Positions 4,183 through 16,411 of a stretch of 20,000 nt of DNA are shown in pieces. The DNA lies in the NCBI RefSeq assembly GCF_004010195.1, contig NC_057752.1, forward strand, positions 13,531,212 through 13,551,211. The letters are read 5' to 3'. The notes under the pieces were generated by a model. That model made no database searches. It was not told the DNA's origin and worked only from the letters and a program-made list of their open reading frames with translations. The position numbers and the translations under genes are program-made. The stretch comes from Chiloscyllium plagiosum (lineage: Eukaryota). The stretch's first letter is position 1. Every line of letters starts with the position of its first letter.

Positions 4183-4344
4183 CTTTCTCGAAAATGGTGA
4201 TACTCCCTTTCCCGCCTTTGTTTGACCTCTTGGCGTTCTGCTGCGTCAAAGACCAGCTCCAAGTCGGTGATGGAGTCTCGATTGATGAGGTTGCCGAAGA
4301 AAGTCTTCTCTTCTTCACAGTTGCAATCATCTCTTGTCAGCTGA
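4183..4344 (-). CDS. B4GALNT1: Internal coding exon (162 nt, phase 2/2) of a beta-1,4-N-acetylgalactosaminyltransferase, B4GALNT1-like (GM2/GD2 synthase family), stem region
   Basis: Acceptor tttgattctcatttctttgtctgcag| and donor |gtatgg. Stop-free frame QLTRDDCNCEEEKTFFGNLINRDSITDLELVFDAAERQEVKQRREREYHHFRE(R) resembles recalled B4GALNT1 (CSCE...[29 protein letters not shown]) and B4GALNT2 (CKCE...VKARRQAEFEHFQRR). The CxC-to-DL spacing fits B4GALNT1 better; paralog assignment is unverified. Confidence 0.78.
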
Positions 4345-5045: not shown

Positions 5046-5329
5046 TCCGGTTTACAGCAAGGAGTGGATGGAGAAAGAAAAAGGATCTGTGACAAAGTGA
5101 ACAACAAAGAGAGGCTGAACGAAAGGCAAGTTCATCCTCCAGGGTGAGGGGGCAGGAGCACAGGCAAAGATACAAAAGATGTACCTGAGGCAGGTATTCT
5201 GCTAACTGAAAGGAATGTTTGGATAAAAATCTGCTCTCCTCCGACACCGAAAACATTTCAGCAACTTGGCTTCCAATTCTTACCCCTCCTCTCAGTAGAT
5301 GATCCATCATGGACTCCTCCCCTCCGTGG

Positions 5330-6025
5330 CTTCTATTCCCATTTCTGCTGGTACATCAGTATCCCCCCCCGATTTCCATAGCAACCTCAACTGCACTTCC
5401 TCACACCCTGCTTCCTGTCAGGACTCCGTCCACCACCCGCCCCCCGCCCTCCCATTTCTCCATCTTTGCTCTGTCTGTTCCAATGACACCACTTTCCATA
5501 GCAGCACTTCTGAGGTATTCCCTCAATCTGTCCACCACAGCAGTCTCCAAACCTCCTCCACTTCGAACCCAATGCCCCCACCAAAACCTGCCCTTTATTA
5601 AAATTAAAAACCTCTTTTTGCCTCTCCGTCCACTCCTTCCAGATGGAACAGTGCTTCACCTCCCACTTCTTTCAATCCAAGCGACTGCACACTTCTGTTC
5701 CGTCAGCAAGGGTGTTCTCGAGTTTCCTGCAGCCTAGCATTTTAATTCGCCATCTTGCTCTCACACTGATGCCTGTGACACGGTTCCAGAACAGCACCTC
5801 ATCTCTCAGCTCAGCGCTTCTGAACTCACACTTACATTCCAAGAATTTCAGCTGATAAGCTTAGTGACTATTTTGCTGCTTCTTTGTGGAACTCTTCAGA
5901 TTTTTTTCTTGTTTTTTTTTTTGTTTACTGCACGCCCGTCCCAGGTGCATCTTTTATTTCTTTCTTCTACTGTAAAACTTGCTTTTTTGTACCATCCAGA
6001 CTTGCTCAAAAGCGAATCCATCTCA
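5330..6025 (+). mobile_element. Highly decayed Penelope-like element (RT thumb, GIY-YIG remnant, 3' region)
   Basis: Peptide remnants CTSSHPASCQDS, FLHLCSVCSNDTTFHS, HSFQMEQCFT, AHFCSVSKGVLEFPAA*HFNSPSCSHTD and EQHLISQL are collinear with the Penelope ORF C-terminal half. The terminal sequence appears to resume at 9208-9245. Confidence 0.75.
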
Positions 6026-9000
6026 AAAGTTTGGCTTCTGGTGCAATGGCAGTGGAGTAGGGGTTTTGAGATCAGGGCTCATCTACTTAAGCAGTTTTTC
6101 ATCTTGCTTCTTTTCTTTTTTGTGTTTTCCTTTCTTCTACTTACTTCTTGTTGGAGAGCTCAGGAGCTTGTGACAGTGGTCAGCAAATAGACCCAGCGCA
6201 GACCCGTGGCTGTCGGAGAATAGGCCCAGCGCAGACCCGTGGCGGTCGGAGAGTAGGCCGAGCACAGACCGGTGGCGGTCGGAGAGTAGGCCCAGCGCAG
6301 ACCCGTGGCGGACGGAGAGTAGGCCCAGCGCAGACCCGTGGCGGACGGAGAGTAGGCCCAGCGCAGACTCGTGGCTGTCGGAGAGTAGGCCCAGCGCAGA
6401 CCCGTGGCTGTCGGAGAGTAGGCCCAGCGCAGACCCGTGGCGGTCGGAGAGTAGGCCCAGCGCAGACCCGTGGCGGTCGGAGAGTAGGCCCAGCGCAGAC
6501 TCGTGGCTGTCGGAGAGTAGGCCCAGCGCAGACCCGTGGCTGTCGGAGAGTAGGCCCAGCGCAGACCCGTGGCGGTCGGAGAGTAGGCCCAGCGCAGACC
6601 CGTGGCTGTCGGAGAGTAGGCCCAGCGGAGACCCGTGGCTGTCGGAGAGTAGGCCCAGCGGAGACCCGTGGCGGTCGGAGAGTAGGCCCAGCGCAGACCC
6701 GTGGCGGTCGGAGAGTAGGCCCTGCGCAGACCCATGGCGGACGGAAAGTAGGCCCAGCGCAGACCCGTGGCGGACGGAGAGTAGGCCCAGCGCAGACCCG
6801 TGGCAGTCGGAGAGTAGGCCCAGCGCAGACCCGTGGCGGTCGGAGAGTAGGCCCAGCGCAGACCCGTGGCGGATGGAGAGTAGGCCCAGCGCAGACCCGT
6901 GGCGGATGGAGAGTAGGCCCAGCGCAGACCCGTGGCGGTTGGAGAGTAGGCCCAGTGCAGGCCCGTGGCTGTCGGAGAGTAGGCCCTGCGCAGACCCGTG
7001 GCGGACGGAAAGTAGGCCCAGCGCAGACCCGTGGCGGATGGAGAGTAGGCCCAGCGCAGGCCCGTGGCTGTCGGAGAGTAGGCCCAGCGCAGACCCGTAG
7101 CGGTCGGGGAGTAGGCCCAGCGCAGACCCGTGGCGGACGGAGAGTAGGCCCAGAGCAAACCTGTGGCGGTCGGAGAGTAGGCCCATCGCAGACCCGTGGA
7201 GGACGGAGAGTAGGCCCATCGCAGACCCGTGGAGGACGGAGAGTAGGCCCAGCGCAGACCCGTGGCGGACGGAGAGTAGGCCCAGCGCAGACCCGTGGCG
7301 GACGGAGAGTAGGCCCAGCGCAGACCCGTGGCGGACGGAGAGTAGGCCCAGCGCAGACCCGTGGCGGACGGAGAGTAGGCCCAGCGCAGACCCGTGGCGG
7401 ACGGAGAGTAGGCCCAGCGCAGACCCGTGGCGGACGGAGAGTAGGCCCAGCGCAGACCCGTGGCGGACGGAGAGTAGGCCCAGCGCAGACCCGTGGCGGA
7501 CGGAGAGTAGGCCCAGCGCAGACCCGTGGCGGACGGAGAGTAGGCCCAGCGCAGACCCGTGGCGGACGGAGAGTAGGCCCAGCGCAGACCCGTGGCGGAC
7601 GGAGAGTAGGCCCAGCGCAGACCCGTGGCGGACGGAGAGTAGGCCCAGCGCAGACCCGTGGCGGACGGAGAGTAGGCCCAGCGCAGACCCGTGGCGGACG
7701 GAGAGTAGGCCCAGCGCAGACCCGTGGCGGACGGAGAGTAGGCCCAGCGCAGACCCGTGGCGGACGGAGAGTAGGCCCAGCGCAGACCCGTGGCGGACGG
7801 AGAGTAGGCCCAGCGCAGACCCGTGGCGGACGGAGAGTAGGCCCAGCGCAGACCCGTGGCGGACGGAGAGTAGGCCCAGCGCAGACCCGTGGCGGACGGA
7901 GAGTAGGCCCAGCGCAGACCCGTGGCGGACGGAGAGTAGGCCCAGCGCAGACCCGTGGCGGACGGAGAGTAGGCCCAGCGCAGACCCGTGGCGGACGGAG
8001 AGTAGGCCCAGCGCAGACCCGTGGCGGACGGAGAGTAGGCCCAGCGCAGACCCGTGGCGGACGGAGAGTAGGCCCAGCGCAGACCCGTGGCGGACGGAGA
8101 GTAGGCCCAGCGCAGACCCGTGGCTGTCGGAGAGTAGGCCCAGCGCAGACCCGTGGTGGTCGGGGAGTAGGCCCAGCGCAGACCCGTGGCGGACGGAGAG
8201 TAGGCCCAGCGCAGACCCGTGGCGGACGGAGAGTAGGCCCAGCGCAGACCCGTGGCGGACGGAGAGTAGGCCCAGCGCAGACCCGTGGCTGTCGGAGAGT
8301 AGGCCCTGCACAGACCTGTGGCGGTCGGGGAGTAGGCCCTGCGCAGACCCGTGGCGGATGGGGAGTAGGCCCTGCGCAGACCCGTGGCGGTCGGGGAGTA
8401 GGCCCAGCGCAGACCCGTGGCGGTCGGAGAGTAGGCCCAGCGCAGACCCGTGGCGGTCGGAGAGTAGGCCCAGCGCAGACCCGTGGAGGACGGAGAGTAG
8501 GCCCAGCGCAGACCCGTGGAGGACGGAGAGTAGGCCCAGCGCAGACCTGTGGCGGTCGGAGAGTAGGCCCAGCACAGACCCGTGGCGGACGGAGAGTAGG
8601 CCCAGCGCAGACCCGTGGCGGTCGGAGAGTCGGCCCAGCGCAGACCCGTGGCGGACGGAGAGTAGGCCCAGCGCAGACCCGTGGCAAGAGCTTGGGTGCT
8701 TCAACGAGATGGCCCTAGTGCTGACTCATGGCTGCTGCTGCGGAGAGGAGTCTGGGTTCCTGGCAGCATCTGCATCCAGCACAGATTCATGGAGGTGGCA
8801 GCAGACGGCGAGTTTGGCACGGTCGAACAGCCTGCATCATCAGCAGCAGCTGCATCGACAAGGTGGGCCCAAGCAGCCTCATGGCAGTGATGGAATGCGG
8901 TACCCAGTGACATCTACATTGGCGAGGCCATCGAGTCTTCGATGGACAAGGGCGTCGGGGGAGACAAGATGGCGCTGAAGGGTGGGCAACTTTCATTCCA

Positions 9001-9207
9001 GCGGTGAAGGGGACCTCCTGCCTGGTTAACAGGCCCATGGCGGAGCACTTAACAAGAAGGATTTGAAAGTTGAACACTTCCTTTATTTCTTCATTTTTCT
9101 GCCTTTATATTCTGTGCTTTGGTTTACTTTTCTGTATTTTAAGATGGTGCCGGAGAGTGGCGACACTATGCAACACTTTTTGCGACAATAAATCAATCAA
9201 ATTAATC
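6026..9207 (+). mobile_element. Putative non-autonomous retroposon with internal GC-rich VNTR and Rex1-like 3' tail
   Basis: Order: short head, T-rich tract, 33-bp VNTR, degenerate monomer relatives (8708-8890), T-rich tract, tail caacacttttTGCGACAATAAatcaatcaa. The 11-mer TGCGACAATAA is shared with the Rex1-type tail at 11690-11700. No clear TSD. Confidence 0.55.
6187..8685. repeat. 33-bp minisatellite, 75 full copies plus 24 bp; consensus GTAGGCCCAGCGCAGACCCGTGGCGGACGGAGA
   Basis: Directly visible. Phase is kept without indels (unit starts at 6187, 7243, 8101, 8662 differ by multiples of 33). 24/33 GC and 4 CpG per consensus unit. 26 identical copies at 7243-8100. Confidence 0.99.
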
Positions 9208-9245
9208 ATTTCCAGGTCCTGATGAAATATCACAGACATGAAAAC
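9208..9245 (+). mobile_element. Penelope terminal remnant with hammerhead-like core
   Basis: CTGATGA (9219-9225), A, ATATC-ACA-GACAT (stem with one mismatch), GAAA (9240-9243). Confidence 0.5.
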
Positions 9246-9249
9246 TTTG

Positions 9250-9453
9250 CCTTTTGATGGAATTTACGTGATCACATAACTTTCAAACAACATGTCAGCA
9301 CTGTACAGAATCTCACTCAAAACAGCGAGACTCCAAGACCCACTGTCGCCAGAAGTGTTTCAGCAGCTAAAGCACTTTTAGCAACCTTTCTTATTTTCTT
9401 ACTGCCCCGAGCTAAAAGGACATCCTTTCTCATCTTCATTAGGATTAGATATC
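9250..9453 (-). mobile_element. Ty1/copia (GalEa-like) RNase H remnant, downstream part
   Basis: Minus strand gives EDEKGCP/(frameshift)LARGSKKIRKVAKSALAAETL...LSEILY, matching the copia RNase H motif CPLxWxSKKIRRVVKSTLAAETL. Confidence 0.75.
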
Positions 9454-9762
9454 TGTTGCAGAGCTGAGTGGAGGTTGACACCCTTCTGAGAATTAAAACC
9501 AAAACACCCAGAGAAACTCACCTTGTTGTCTGATAAACAAATGTGCCAAGGGGTATAACTTACCTCTCATTCCACCCACCAATCGGTTATAAAGGAATGG
9601 TTAAAGGAAATGGAGTCCTTTCAGTCACCCCACAATCAGCAAGTAACAATTTACTTATCTAACTCCAACCGTGAACAAATTAACAGAACCTACCAATAAT
9701 CTGAGCAATTCCTCTCTAACTACCTATTCCCGAATAAAACAAGATTCTAACAGGATGCTGTT

Positions 9763-10080
9763 TGATTAGATTAGATTACTTACAGTGTGGAAGCAGGCCC
9801 TTCGGCTCAACAAGTCCACACCAACCCTTCAAAGAGCAACCCGTCCAGACCTATTCCTCTACATTTACCCCTTTACCTAACACTACGGGCAATTTAGCAT
9901 GGCCAATTCACCTAACCTGCATACCTTTGGACTGTGGGAGGAAACCGGAGCACCCGGAGGAAACCCATGCAGACACGGGGTGAATGTGCAAACTCCACAC
10001 AGACAGTTGCCAGGAAGCGGGAATTGAACCCAGGTCTCTGGCGCTGTGAGGCAGCAGTGCTAACCACTGTGCCACCGTGC
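9763..10080 (-). mobile_element. Near full-length HE1 SINE
   Basis: Minus strand starts gcacggtggcacagtggttagcactgctgcctcacagcgccagagacctgggttcaattcc (tRNA-derived A/B boxes). CR1-type tail and (TCTAA)n end. Confidence 0.93.
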
Positions 10081-10190
10081 AGCTACAAGTCCTACTTACA
10101 GAACAAAGCAATAAACTAAATCTTAATCTCTCAAAGTTCACATGGAACGTGTCTTGCGAAATGCTCCTCACCCTCTCTGCTGATCTTCTT

Positions 10191-10245
10191 TCTCTCTCTC
10201 TCTCTCTCTCTCTCTCGTGAGAGAGAGAGCGAGCGAGAGCGAGAG
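10191..10245. repeat. (TC)n directly followed by (GA)n/(GAGC) microsatellite, self-complementary
   Basis: Directly visible; a variant copy lies at ~11949-11993. Confidence 0.95.
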
Positions 10246-10410
10246 CTGAGGACTCTTAACTCTGGCAAATGGCAGTTAGCACTCCTCACGGTTTTCAAAA
10301 TGCCCACATCTTTTATACCCTTGATGACATATTAGTTTCTTTTCAATCAGATTGGTTCCCGATAGTCAAAAACATCAGGTTTAAATGTGATAGGTTTTCA
10401 GCACTTTAAT

Positions 10411-11174: not shown

Positions 11175-11659
11175 CTAACAAACCATACCTGATGCAAGTA
11201 CATCAGAGCAGAATGCAGAATAGTGTTATAGCTACCGAGAAGGTGCAAAGAAAGATCAACTCTAGTCTAGGAGAGGGTCGTTCAGAAGTCTAATAACAGC
11301 AGGGAAGAAGCTGTCCTTGAATCTGTTTAAGCTTCTGTCTCTTCTGCCTGACAAAAGAGGATGTAAGAGAGTGTAATCGGGGCGGGAGGGGTCTTTGATG
11401 ATGTCCCCGAGGCAGTGGGAAGTGTAGACGGAGTCAGTGGATGGAAGGTTGGGTTGTGTGAGGGACTGGGCTGTGTTCACGACTCTCTGTAGTTTCTTAT
11501 GGTCCTGGGCAGAGCAGTTGCTGTACTAAGCCGTGATGCACTCGGATAGGATGACTTCCACAGCGCATCTGTAAAAACTGGTAAGAGTCCTTGTGGACAT
11601 GCCAAATTTCCTTAGCATCCTGAGGAATTTGAAATGTTGGTGTGCTTTCTTGACTGTAG
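11175..11659 (-). mobile_element. Rex1/Babar-clade LINE ORF C-terminal fragment
   Basis: Minus strand reads TVKKAHQHFKFLRMLRKFGMSTRTLTSFYRCAVE...KKLQRVVNTAQSLTQPNLPS...IIKDPSRP...LLSGRR...FKDSFFPAVIRLLN, the typical Rex1 RT C-terminus. Confidence 0.9.
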
Positions 11660-11710
11660 AAACAATACTTTCCACTATATCTCAGTTCATGCGACAATAA
11701 TAAATTGAAT
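11660..11710 (+). mobile_element. Rex1-type 3' tail in the opposite orientation to the adjacent ORF fragment
   Basis: aaacaatactttccactatatctcagttcatgcgacaataataaattgaatc resembles the recalled shark Rex1 3' terminus. Confidence 0.65.
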
Positions 11711-11960
11711 CTTCCTGTTATAGGCAGGATATTATTAAGATGGAGAGGGTTCAGAAGACATTTACCAGGATATTGAAGGGAATGGAGGGTTTGAGTTAGA
11801 GGGAGAGGGTGGGACTTCTTTCACTGGAGCGTCGGAGGCTGAGGGGTGACCTTATAGAGGTTTCTAAAATCATGAGGCATATAGATAAGGTGAACAGCAG
11901 ATGCCTTTTCTCTAGAGAATGCTCCTCACCCTCTCTGCTGATCTTCTTTCTCTCTCTCTC

Positions 11961-11993
<33 letters not shown>

Positions 11994-12388
11994 CTGAGGA
12001 CTCTTAACTCTGGCAAATGGCAGTTAGCACTCCTCACGGCTGAGGGGTGACCTTATAGAGGTTTCTAAAATCATGAGGCATATAGATAAGGTGAACAGCA
12101 GATGCCTTTTCTCTAGAGTGGGGGATTTCAAGATGAGGGGATATATTTTTAAGGTGAGAGGAGAAAGATTTTAAAAAGACATGAGGGGCATTTTTTGTTT
12201 AAACACAGAGAGTGATTTGTGTGTGGAATGAACTTCCTGAGGAAGTGGTGGATGTGGGGATAGTTACAATGTTTAAAAGGCATTTGGATCAGGACATGAA
12301 TAGGAAAGATTTGGAGCAATATGAGCCAGGAGCAGGCAGGTGGGACTAATTTAGTTTGGGATTATGGTCAGCATGGACTGATTGGACA
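11711..12388 (+). mobile_element. CR1 LINE 3' fragment with an internal 81-bp duplication and a templated insert
   Basis: MERVQKTFTRILKG, LSLERRRLRGDLIEV and WNELPEEVV-like sequence. 11837-11917 is identical to 12038-12118. Confidence 0.9.
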
Positions 12389-12389
12389 G

Positions 12390-12750
12390 CCTAAATTGTC
12401 CCATAGTGCCCAGGGATGTGTACGTTAGGGTGGATTGGCCATGCTAAATTACCCATAGTGTCCAGGGATGTGCAGGTTAGGGTGAATTGACCATGCTAAA
12501 TTACCCCATAGTGTCCAGCGATGTGCAGGTTAGGGTGGATTGACCATGCTAAATTACCCCATAGTGCCCAGGGATGTGCAGGTTAGGGTGGATTGGCCAT
12601 GCTAAATTGTCCCATGGTGCCCAGGGATGTGCAGGTTAGGGTGGGATTGGCCATGGGGAAAATGCAGAATTACACGAGTATGGGTGGGATGAACTGAAGG
12701 GTTAGTATGGGCTGAATAATCTGCTTCGACACTGCGGGGCTTCTATGATG
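12390..12750 (+). mobile_element. HE1-related SINE 3' part with 5 tandem ~53-bp internal units
   Basis: Unit taaattgtcccatagtgcccagggatgtgcaggttagggtggattggccatgc starts at 12392, 12445, 12497, 12550 and 12603, followed by a degenerate tail ending ttctatgat. Confidence 0.85.
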
Positions 12751-13921: not shown

Positions 13922-14224
13922 AGAATCATAGAACCCCTACAGTGCAGAAAGAGGCCATTCGGCCCACAGAGTATGCACCAACTCACTGAAAAGTCCCAAC
14001 CACACCAATCCTGTGACCCAGCATTTCCCATGGGACAATTCAGCATGGCCAATCCACCCTAACCTGCACATCCCTGGGCACTATGGGACAATTTAGCATG
14101 GCCAATCCACCCTAACCTGCTCATCCCTGGACACTATGGGACAATTCAGCATGGCCAATCCACCATAACCTGCACATCCCTGGGCACTATGGGACAATTT
14201 AGCATGGCCAACCCACCCTAACCT
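13922..14224 (-). mobile_element. HE1-related SINE 3' part with ~3.5 tandem 53-bp units
   Basis: Reverse complement of the 12392-12655 unit, repeated over ~14028-14224. Tail agaatcatagaacccctacagtg at 13922. Confidence 0.85.
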
Positions 14225-15098: not shown

Positions 15099-15381
15099 TG
15101 CAAACGCACCTTCCCAGATCATCAAATCCTAGAGCGGGACTCGAAAGGAGGGGCCCAGGGAAACTGCTCACCCGACCAGGAGGGGCCCAGGGAAACTGCT
15201 CACCCGACCAGGAGGGGTCCAGGGAAACTGCAAACGCACCTTCCCAGATCATCAAATCCTAGAGCGGGACTCGAAATGAGGGGTCCAGGACCCCTCACCC
15301 GACCAGGAGGGGTCCAGGGAAACTGCTCACCCGACCAGGAGGGGTCCAGGGAAACTGCACACCCGACCAGGAGGGGTCCAG
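15099..15381. repeat. Compound tandem repeat: 32-bp units nested in a 130-bp higher-order duplication
   Basis: Unit ggagggg(c/t)ccagggaaactgctcacccgacca starts at 15147 and 15179 and recurs. The block caaacgcaccttcccagatcatcaaatcctagagcgggactcgaaa occurs at 15101 and 15231. Confidence 0.95.
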
Positions 15382-15911
15382 TGATGATCGGTCCAATAAA
15401 ATGAGGACTAACTGTAGCTTCAAATAACTAAACTGGAGCCTTCTACCTCTGACTTAAACTCCGCCGAAATGAAAGGTCCACAATCCAGGAGCATGCTTAA
15501 ATTATTTTTTATCCCCCCCCGCCCATAGCTTGGTGATTTGCTCACACCTATTCCTCAACATCAATTAATTCATTTCCGAACGAGACATTTGTGGCTTCTC
15601 AACAGGAGCAAATATTCTGATCAGTCTTTCTGAGGGTCAATCCCTACTTGATCCGGAGAGCTCATGTTTGAATATTCCCTTAATCCCAGAGCACACATTG
15701 GGCGGTGAACAATTTATTGGTACGCTGGTATTTGGAAATGAAAGGCGGTAATTTGTTTACGCAAACAATCTAAGTAACGCACTGCAGCCAGCTCAGCCGC
15801 TATCAACGCCACTTCGTGGTTCACAATTGAAAATGCTATCTCCAGTCGTTTCCCTCCCTCACACTCACACCCACGTACGCCCCCTCCCTCCCTCACACTC
15901 ACACACACACA

Positions 15912-16411
15912 NNNNNNNNNNNNNNNNNNNNNNNNNNNNNNNNNNNNNNNNNNNNNNNNNNNNNNNNNNNNNNNNNNNNNNNNNNNNNNNNNNNNNNNNN
16001 NNNNNNNNNNNNNNNNNNNNNNNNNNNNNNNNNNNNNNNNNNNNNNNNNNNNNNNNNNNNNNNNNNNNNNNNNNNNNNNNNNNNNNNNNNNNNNNNNNNN
16101 NNNNNNNNNNNNNNNNNNNNNNNNNNNNNNNNNNNNNNNNNNNNNNNNNNNNNNNNNNNNNNNNNNNNNNNNNNNNNNNNNNNNNNNNNNNNNNNNNNNN
16201 NNNNNNNNNNNNNNNNNNNNNNNNNNNNNNNNNNNNNNNNNNNNNNNNNNNNNNNNNNNNNNNNNNNNNNNNNNNNNNNNNNNNNNNNNNNNNNNNNNNN
16301 NNNNNNNNNNNNNNNNNNNNNNNNNNNNNNNNNNNNNNNNNNNNNNNNNNNNNNNNNNNNNNNNNNNNNNNNNNNNNNNNNNNNNNNNNNNNNNNNNNNN
16401 NNNNNNNNNNN
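15912..16411. other. Assembly gap (500 N), preceded by a CA-rich simple repeat
   Basis: Run of N; the round length suggests a placeholder gap size. Confidence 0.99.

Follow-up and report, generated by a model that had tools for sequence, protein, structure and literature searches.

The window analysed here, a stretch of 20,000 nucleotides from Chiloscyllium plagiosum, is repeat-rich vertebrate DNA. The present account deals with one unit in it, at positions 6026–9208 of the forward strand, which consists of a putative 5' head, a T-rich tract, a long GC-rich minisatellite with a 33-bp period, a stretch that holds degenerate relatives of the same monomer, an AT-rich 3' module, and a tail like that of a long interspersed nuclear element (LINE) found elsewhere in the window. 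The first-pass annotation of this DNA had proposed a non-coding composite retroposon that is mobilised by a Rex1-type LINE, seeds GC-rich domains with a variable number of tandem repeats (VNTRs), and converges on the SVA elements. We find that the unit belongs to a multi-copy non-coding family in which GC-rich repeats are intrinsic and vary in extent from copy to copy, and, judging from the sequence, we consider it probably a LINE-tailed retroposon with a Rex1 partner.

The 33-bp Array

Tandem repeats were called with Tandem Repeats Finder (TRF), which places the minisatellite at 6188–8685 (+), with 75.7 copies of the 33-bp period, 95% matches, and no insertions or deletions; the array is about 2.5 kb long and 71% GC. 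Among its 75 full monomers there are 26 types; 34 monomers carry the consensus sequence, and 26 of these form a homogeneous core in one unbroken run (7247–8104, +). Variant monomers, some of them in repeated blocks, lie at both edges of the array, and the mean divergence is 3.6%. The observed-to-expected CpG ratio is 0.88 in the array, 0.0 in 6026–6187, and 0.52 in 8686–9031. The polarity of the array, together with its retained CpGs, suggests a minisatellite whose turnover is faster than its decay; a polishing effect could contribute in part to the perfect 26-monomer core.

Five of the six reading frames are open across the array because the monomer contains no stop in those frames, and these open frames gave no credible homologues in protein, Pfam, and Atlas searches: the matches inspected in the protein search (31 of 42) were all unrelated low-complexity repeats. 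A protein-coding array was accordingly rejected, and the earlier statement that the unit carries no coding remnant is borne out. The monomer was also rejected as a structured RNA, its dimer folding worse than 197 of 200 shuffles.

A Multi-copy Family with a Common 3' End

Copy number was assessed with the public contigs of three DNA runs, two from organism A and one from organism B, mapped on 8650–9760 at 80% likeness, and the depths below are summed contig depths, not copy numbers, given as multiples of the unique flank. The highest values fall on the 3' module (9032–9180, +), which comprises a T-rich tract, the second of two boxes with the motif AAGATGG, and the start of the tail: the depth is 856–1534x at 9068–9143 and 362–661x at 9144–9181, which we read as of the order of a thousand related copies. 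With high depth up to 9180 and one shared continuation beyond it, the pattern is that of many interspersed family members that share one 3' end. The paralogue pieces listed differ from the window copy by 19–26 letters per ~145–150, C>T and G>A being the most frequent changes, and contig loose ends before 9032 and 9081 run on into sequence homologous to the window copy, so that in those contigs a longer body precedes the 3' module, which is not a free-standing short interspersed nuclear element (SINE). By contig depth, then, the window unit is one of many copies of a non-coding family.

The GC-rich body shares in this amplification. A block at 8726–8801 (+) reaches 100–316x in the three DNA runs, and of the 12 joint rows shown (45 in all), 10 go back within 8650–8796, with periods, counted as span plus inserted letters, of 74, 60, 60, 66, 41, 39, 39, 74, 60, and 60 bp; the recurrence of these periods indicates that other copies repeat body units in tandem. 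Other copies also have body and 3' module together: among the 15 joints shown (of 211), 6 connect 8746–8805 with 9032–9081, at 80% likeness, each in 1–4 contigs of a run, and across an interval of unknown letters.

Three degenerate relatives of the 33-bp monomer, separated by spacers, lie behind the array at 8706–8750, 8776–8832, and 8841–8894 (all +). Singly they are modest (their scores are reached by 1, 1, and 14 of 500 local shuffles, and the score of the best one by 11 of 500 shuffles of 8686–9207); their joint score is 81, whereas shuffles average 58 and none of 400 dinucleotide shuffles gets as high, and six control stretches score 34–61. The first-pass annotation had seen such relatives at ~8706, ~8776, and ~8863 and had taken the GC-rich repeat to be intrinsic to a larger unit, and both claims hold: besides the joint test, the family continuation behind 8795 enters another monomer-like unit, and the repeat is reiterated to varying extent in other copies. 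The monomer therefore derives from a unit inside its host element.

For the 33-mer itself, the depth at the bin of the last monomer is 119x, 90x, and 59x in the three runs, to be set against 75.7 local copies; the two are of the same order, so the 33-mer has not been amplified across hundreds of loci, and the long array looks locus-specific. Of the proposed Rex1-mobilised, VNTR-seeding family, the multi-copy state, the intrinsic variable repeat, and the LINE tail stand. VNTR seeding at many loci is neither shown nor excluded by the depth, since arrays built from other units would go unnoticed at less than 80% likeness. Run X4 contains one variant monomer pair that is not present in the window array, which points to another locus or allele, and the monomer-bin depth of organism B suggests that it also has an array.

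The two AAGATGG boxes, found by motif scan and compared pairwise, lie at 8966–8985 and 9141–9160 (both +); they are identical at 16 of 20 bases, and a family variant reads AAGATGGCGCC. The motifs noted in the first pass are thus present on the forward strand, at 8966 and 9141, but the 7-mer has 8 occurrences in the window against 3.75 expected. The boxes resemble a YY1 site and are at most a candidate binding or promoter motif.

Pattern scans of viral and genome contig collections returned no match. Two pattern matches among metagenome contigs were set aside as chance, both lying in bacterial or phage-like coding DNA; these two contigs (L001 and L002) overlap and, by reading, appear to encode a DNA methyltransferase, L002 seeming to carry an extra insertion there.

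The Tail and Its Candidate Partner

The window copy ends in a LINE-type 3' tail (9171–9191, +), which between 9180 and 9181 lacks about 24 nt that the family has and that contain a hairpin, and in a short, imperfect ATCA terminal repeat (9192–9208, +), as read from the letters. The earlier description of an (ATCA)n end is right in kind and overstated in its n, for there are two perfect units at 9192–9199, an interruption, and a third unit at 9205–9208. The 11-mer TGCGACAATAA, noted before as common to this tail and a second one, is indeed exact at 9181–9191 and 11690–11700; with one mismatch allowed, 22 of 200 shuffles also give two matches, which makes the 11-mer weak evidence when taken by itself. 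The family carries the comparison further. The contigs that leave the window behind 9180 (95, 112, and 111 per run) have in common a continuation of ~24 letters followed by a TG(C/T)GAC motif, and the resulting family tail matches 11660–11700 in three blocks in the same order (8/9, 8/11, and 12/13), one decayed LINE copy being compared. The tail common to the unit and the neighbouring LINE remnant is thereby upheld by a match far beyond 11 bases. The ~24-nt segment of the family forms a hairpin with a perfect 9-bp stem (−9.8 kcal/mol, z −3.7, 0 of 200 shuffles), and the window copy's own tail folds at chance level.

The LINE remnant (11175–11659, −) consists of the C-terminal end of a reverse transcriptase (RT) open reading frame (ORF) and a 3' untranslated region (UTR), and matches PF09004 with an E value of 4e-9. 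It has 17 homologues, of which the named ones come from sharks and rays and one also carries RVT_1. We presume that the remnant is of Rex1 type, although no named Rex1 was among its matches. The tail at 11660–11710 (+) adjoins it on the opposite strand and, by this adjacency, presumably belongs to it; since the remnant's own 3' UTR ends before any tail, the two are read as one inverted-body insertion, a kind of insertion usually ascribed to twin priming. In the account of PMC6274825, the 3' UTR of Rex1 elements is conserved and a variable oligonucleotide repeat comes after it; Rex1 elements are among the repeats reported in elasmobranchs (PMC13343379, PMC8455134), and DUF1891 is one of the domains drawn for a LINE set that includes Rex1 families in the legend to Fig. 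1 of PMC7846101.

Head, Junctions, and Age of the Insertion

The putative 5' head (6026–6090, +) is depleted in CpG by count and carries no A and B boxes of RNA polymerase III (pol III), and the T-rich tract behind it (6091–6160, +) resembles 9087–9140 only as low-complexity sequence. A transfer RNA (tRNA) search found no tRNA, Rfam gave no family near its gathering score and no 7SL/Alu-type match in 5800–9500, and 6026–6190 holds no A/B-box pair in a scan that does find such pairs in the three SINE copies at 10074, 10421, and 16826; all three results agree with the earlier claim that there is no tRNA-type head. The head folds at chance level.

On the left, the unit is bordered by a decayed coding end and terminus (5300–6025, +), recognised from translations, which we presume to be of Penelope type and for which Pfam and Atlas searches gave no support. 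On the right, a separate flank with CTGATGA...GAAA (9209–9250, +) has single-copy depth at 80% likeness and begins one base later than the 9208 given by the first-pass annotation; it resembles other termini in the window, presumably minimal hammerheads of Penelope type, in weak alignments that carry no significance test. That both flanks are one Penelope terminus is a further presumption, which fits the usual form of such ends. The right flank also contains a second multi-copy repeat, at 9448–9523 and 9562–9760, whose depth at 9638–9675 climbs to several hundred times that of the unique flank.

At the junctions, ...ATCTCA up to 6025 is followed by AAAG, and ...AATCA up to 9208 by TTTCC. The sole repeat is TCA (6023–6025 and 9206–9208, both +), no longer junction duplication having been found, and it is at most a 3-bp target duplication or a microhomology with the tail repeat. 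A contig of organism B spans 9140–9351 with 13 differing letters and one gap; the insertion and its short tail therefore predate the split of organisms A and B.

Other Features of the Window

Two 53-bp tandem arrays, at 12380–12655 and 14030–14224 (5.2 and 3.7 copies), consist of an internal segment of a common tRNA-type SINE and lie in opposite orientation ~1.4 kb apart, and at 15099–15384 a GC-rich 32-bp repeat is nested in a 127-bp higher-order duplication. A piece of ~130 bp with a TC/GA fold-back microsatellite (10160–10291) is copied 1.75 kb downstream, at 11918–12039, inside a CR1-like remnant; the copy is flanked by a perfect 81-bp direct duplication (11837–11917 = 12038–12118) and looks like a templated local insertion. 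On the minus strand, 4183–4344 is a probable 162-bp coding exon with a canonical acceptor and donor and one open frame, for which no Pfam or PDB match was found; if the exon is real, the retroposon lies antisense within or upstream of that gene. An assembly gap of N occupies 15912–16411 and has CA-rich repeats at its borders.

Interpretation and Alternatives

The reading that we prefer, at a probability of roughly 0.55, is that the family is a non-autonomous retroposon that is copied by a Rex1-type LINE by way of its tail hairpin, is transcribed by RNA polymerase II (pol II), and has a slippage-prone GC body, and that the window holds a dead copy of it in which one unit expanded after insertion. 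The unit at 6026–9208, with its 5' head belonging to the same element, would be one such copy of an abundant, non-coding shark family whose layout would comprise a GC-rich body of short degenerate units, an AT-rich 3' module, a LINE-derived stem-loop tail, and a short terminal repeat, with the body units duplicated to different extents among copies. The family RNA would most likely be reverse-transcribed in trans by a tail-recognising Rex1-type LINE protein. Its transcription would probably be by pol II from the CpG-rich head or body, or by read-through, as the lack of pol III boxes suggests. The window copy may have inserted into the Penelope-type terminus before organisms A and B split, and one 33-bp body unit would then have expanded in place at the DNA level through slippage, unequal exchange, or conversion. 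Since it has no tail hairpin, this copy is probably no longer a template.

Several observations weigh against this reading. The depths are sums over contigs and do not equal copy numbers; at 80% likeness the depth is just 1–31x at 8802–8991 and stays so up to 9030, which means that copies diverge strongly in their bodies; and the contigs, mapped on 8650–9760 and so downstream of the 5' flank (6026–6187), revealed no paralogue of full length. The joints between body and 3' module carry the limits given with them above (likeness, few contigs per run, unknown letters), and the loose ends behind 9180 show 30 letters each, short of the last bases of the family and its terminal repeat. On the side of the partner, the LINE tail at 11660–11710 has no significant hairpin (z −0.2), so that a shared stem-loop is not established for the LINE, and searches for a full-length partner LINE or Rex1 found none. 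There is no clear target-site duplication at the 6025 and 9208 junctions. Nor was the empty orthologous site seen that the first-pass annotation had named as a point to look for: in the one comparison made, between organisms A and B, the site is filled in B.

The same parts could be joined differently. The whole unit could be an internally deleted LINE, in which the 5' UTR (a monomeric internal promoter) of a shark Rex1 lineage supplied the head, T-rich tract, and GC repeats and is joined directly to the lineage's own tail; mobilisation would be the same, and the element would be a simple bipartite derivative and not a composite. The unit contains no coding or small-RNA remnant, its AAGATGG boxes and CpG-rich repeats resemble the internal promoter of a LINE, and fish Rex1 5' ends open with an AAGATGG-like box. 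Bipartite ORF-less derivatives are, moreover, common for RTE in the treatment of PMC5786205 (Kojima 2018); that same treatment, as far as it concerns ORF-less bipartite sources, names RTE, Ingi, Vingi, and R2 only, and the second box of the shark unit stands just before the tail, not at the 5' end, so we regard this explanation as unlikely. It is less likely still, in our estimate, that the locus is nested or chimeric, with the LINE-tailed member confined to ~8690–9208, the head and T-rich tract either a separate insertion or unique sequence, and the minisatellite an ordinary local expansion at its truncated 5' edge. Such an arrangement would suit the 5' flank, which has no significant likeness to the monomer (the score is reached by 165 of 500 shuffles) or to the 3' boxes, as well as the depth, which steps up toward the 3' end as it would with 5'-truncated copies, and the 53-bp arrays show that the window has further arrays internal to transposable elements (TEs). 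The flanks at 6025 and 9209 look, however, like the halves of one terminus with a TCA at either side, for which a single insertion is the simplest account, and the decayed CpG of the head fits the same old element.

The family could also be real and have another partner, and of the alternatives this is the one to which we give least weight. The partner might be a CR1-group LINE of the L2, Crack, or Daphne type, for a restriction of PF09004 to Rex1 is not established and the Rex1 label is our own presumption; or the element might have begun as a tRNA-type SINE with a decayed head near 9023 and a captured GC body. A one-mismatch A/B-box pair does occur at 9023/9069, near the jump in depth, but such pairs number 50 across the window, and 139 of 500 shuffles yield as many as the two that fall in 8686–9207 (at 8882 and 9023), so that a SINE head at 9023 was rejected as chance; the contig loose ends before 9032, too, enter homologous body sequence. 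For the partner, the inclusion of Rex1 families in the LINE set for which DUF1891 is drawn (PMC7846101, Fig. 1 legend) speaks against a move away from Rex1. Returning to the Rex1-copied retroposon, we hold its most far-reaching form to be tentative and rather doubtful, namely that it represents an uncatalogued elasmobranch family with an independent SVA design: transcribed by pol II, ORF-less, with its own head, a multi-period GC VNTR, and a hairpin tail of Rex1 type, numbering some thousand copies or more, and with different units grown into CpG-rich minisatellites at many loci.

Comparison with Known Elements

The SVA, LAVA, PVA, and FVA elements, as PMC4432496 presents them, are likewise non-autonomous, non-coding, and non-LTR (lacking long terminal repeats), with GC-rich central repeats of ~30–50 bp, several unit lengths, and remodelling at the DNA level; they differ in having a CT-hexamer/Alu-like 5' part and mobilisation by L1, and are stated there to be hominoid-specific. 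A central GC-rich variable domain of the SVA type is present in the shark family, in the form of the 33-bp array with its 71% GC and of the 39–74 bp reiterations in other copies, among which periods of 60 and 74 bp go beyond those of SVA. In contrast to SVA, the shark unit has no CT-hexamer array by TRF and no 7SL/Alu-type Rfam match in 5800–9500, it ends in imperfect ATCA without poly(A) and with a junction repeat of at most 3 bp, its family has a LINE-derived tail with a hairpin, and it does not show a composite of recognisable donor repeats. The convergence on SVA claimed in the first pass is therefore an analogy of layout: the GC-rich variable domain is common to both, and the SVA parts and the L1/poly(A) signature are absent.

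Other known systems share one or another part of the design. The bipartite ORF-less LINEs (RTESINE1/2, WALLSI3, RTE-N2_Lch, RIME, and NARTc) resemble the shark unit in having no pol III head, no ORF, and a LINE 3' end, but they are short, are reported for RTE, Ingi, Vingi, and R2 only, and have no VNTR described in the pertinent parts of PMC5786205. In its presumed mode of copying, the shark family is like other elements that share a tail with a LINE. A precedent for a Rex1 tail is SINE2-5_NV with its partner Rex1-24_NV, and the shark HE1 shares its tail with HER1 (PMC3747384, Table 1); both of these SINEs have tRNA-derived heads in that table, whereas the shark unit has no such head and is far longer. 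Bird SINEs, as cited in PMC7245038, combine a GC-rich head of unknown origin with a bipartite RTE sequence and thus also have a 5' part not derived from a small RNA, but their partner is RTE, and the citing text mentions no variable tandem domain. Minisatellites born in retroelements are common according to PMC6947457, which covers Ms6-hm in MaLR and the B1- and Alu-derived arrays; in these, as in the 33-bp array, an internal retroelement unit has become a long array at one locus. The shark family differs from such TE-derived minisatellites in that the parent family already reiterates its units in many copies.

Significance

No description of such a shark family was found in the literature covered, which did not extend to Dfam, Repbase and its Reports, supplements, and most subscription papers, and automatic repeat libraries probably include so abundant a family as a model without classification; the unclassified share of repeats in shark genomes is large, 10.8% in the whale shark by the figures of PMC8455134. 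If the 5' head proves separate, or if the family is already in a repeat library, the locus would be an ordinary TE-derived minisatellite. Non-autonomous retroposons with a VNTR are described in PMC4432496 as hominoid-specific and L1-driven, and the most far-reaching form of our reading, if true, would place such a retroposon outside the hominoids and under the drive of a stringent partner other than L1. A Rex1-tailed VNTR family in sharks would then give an independent and old test of whether the VNTR is helpful to its element, as a promoter or through RNA structure, or is a by-product, and it would name a source of the CpG-rich, length-variable DNA in shark genomes.

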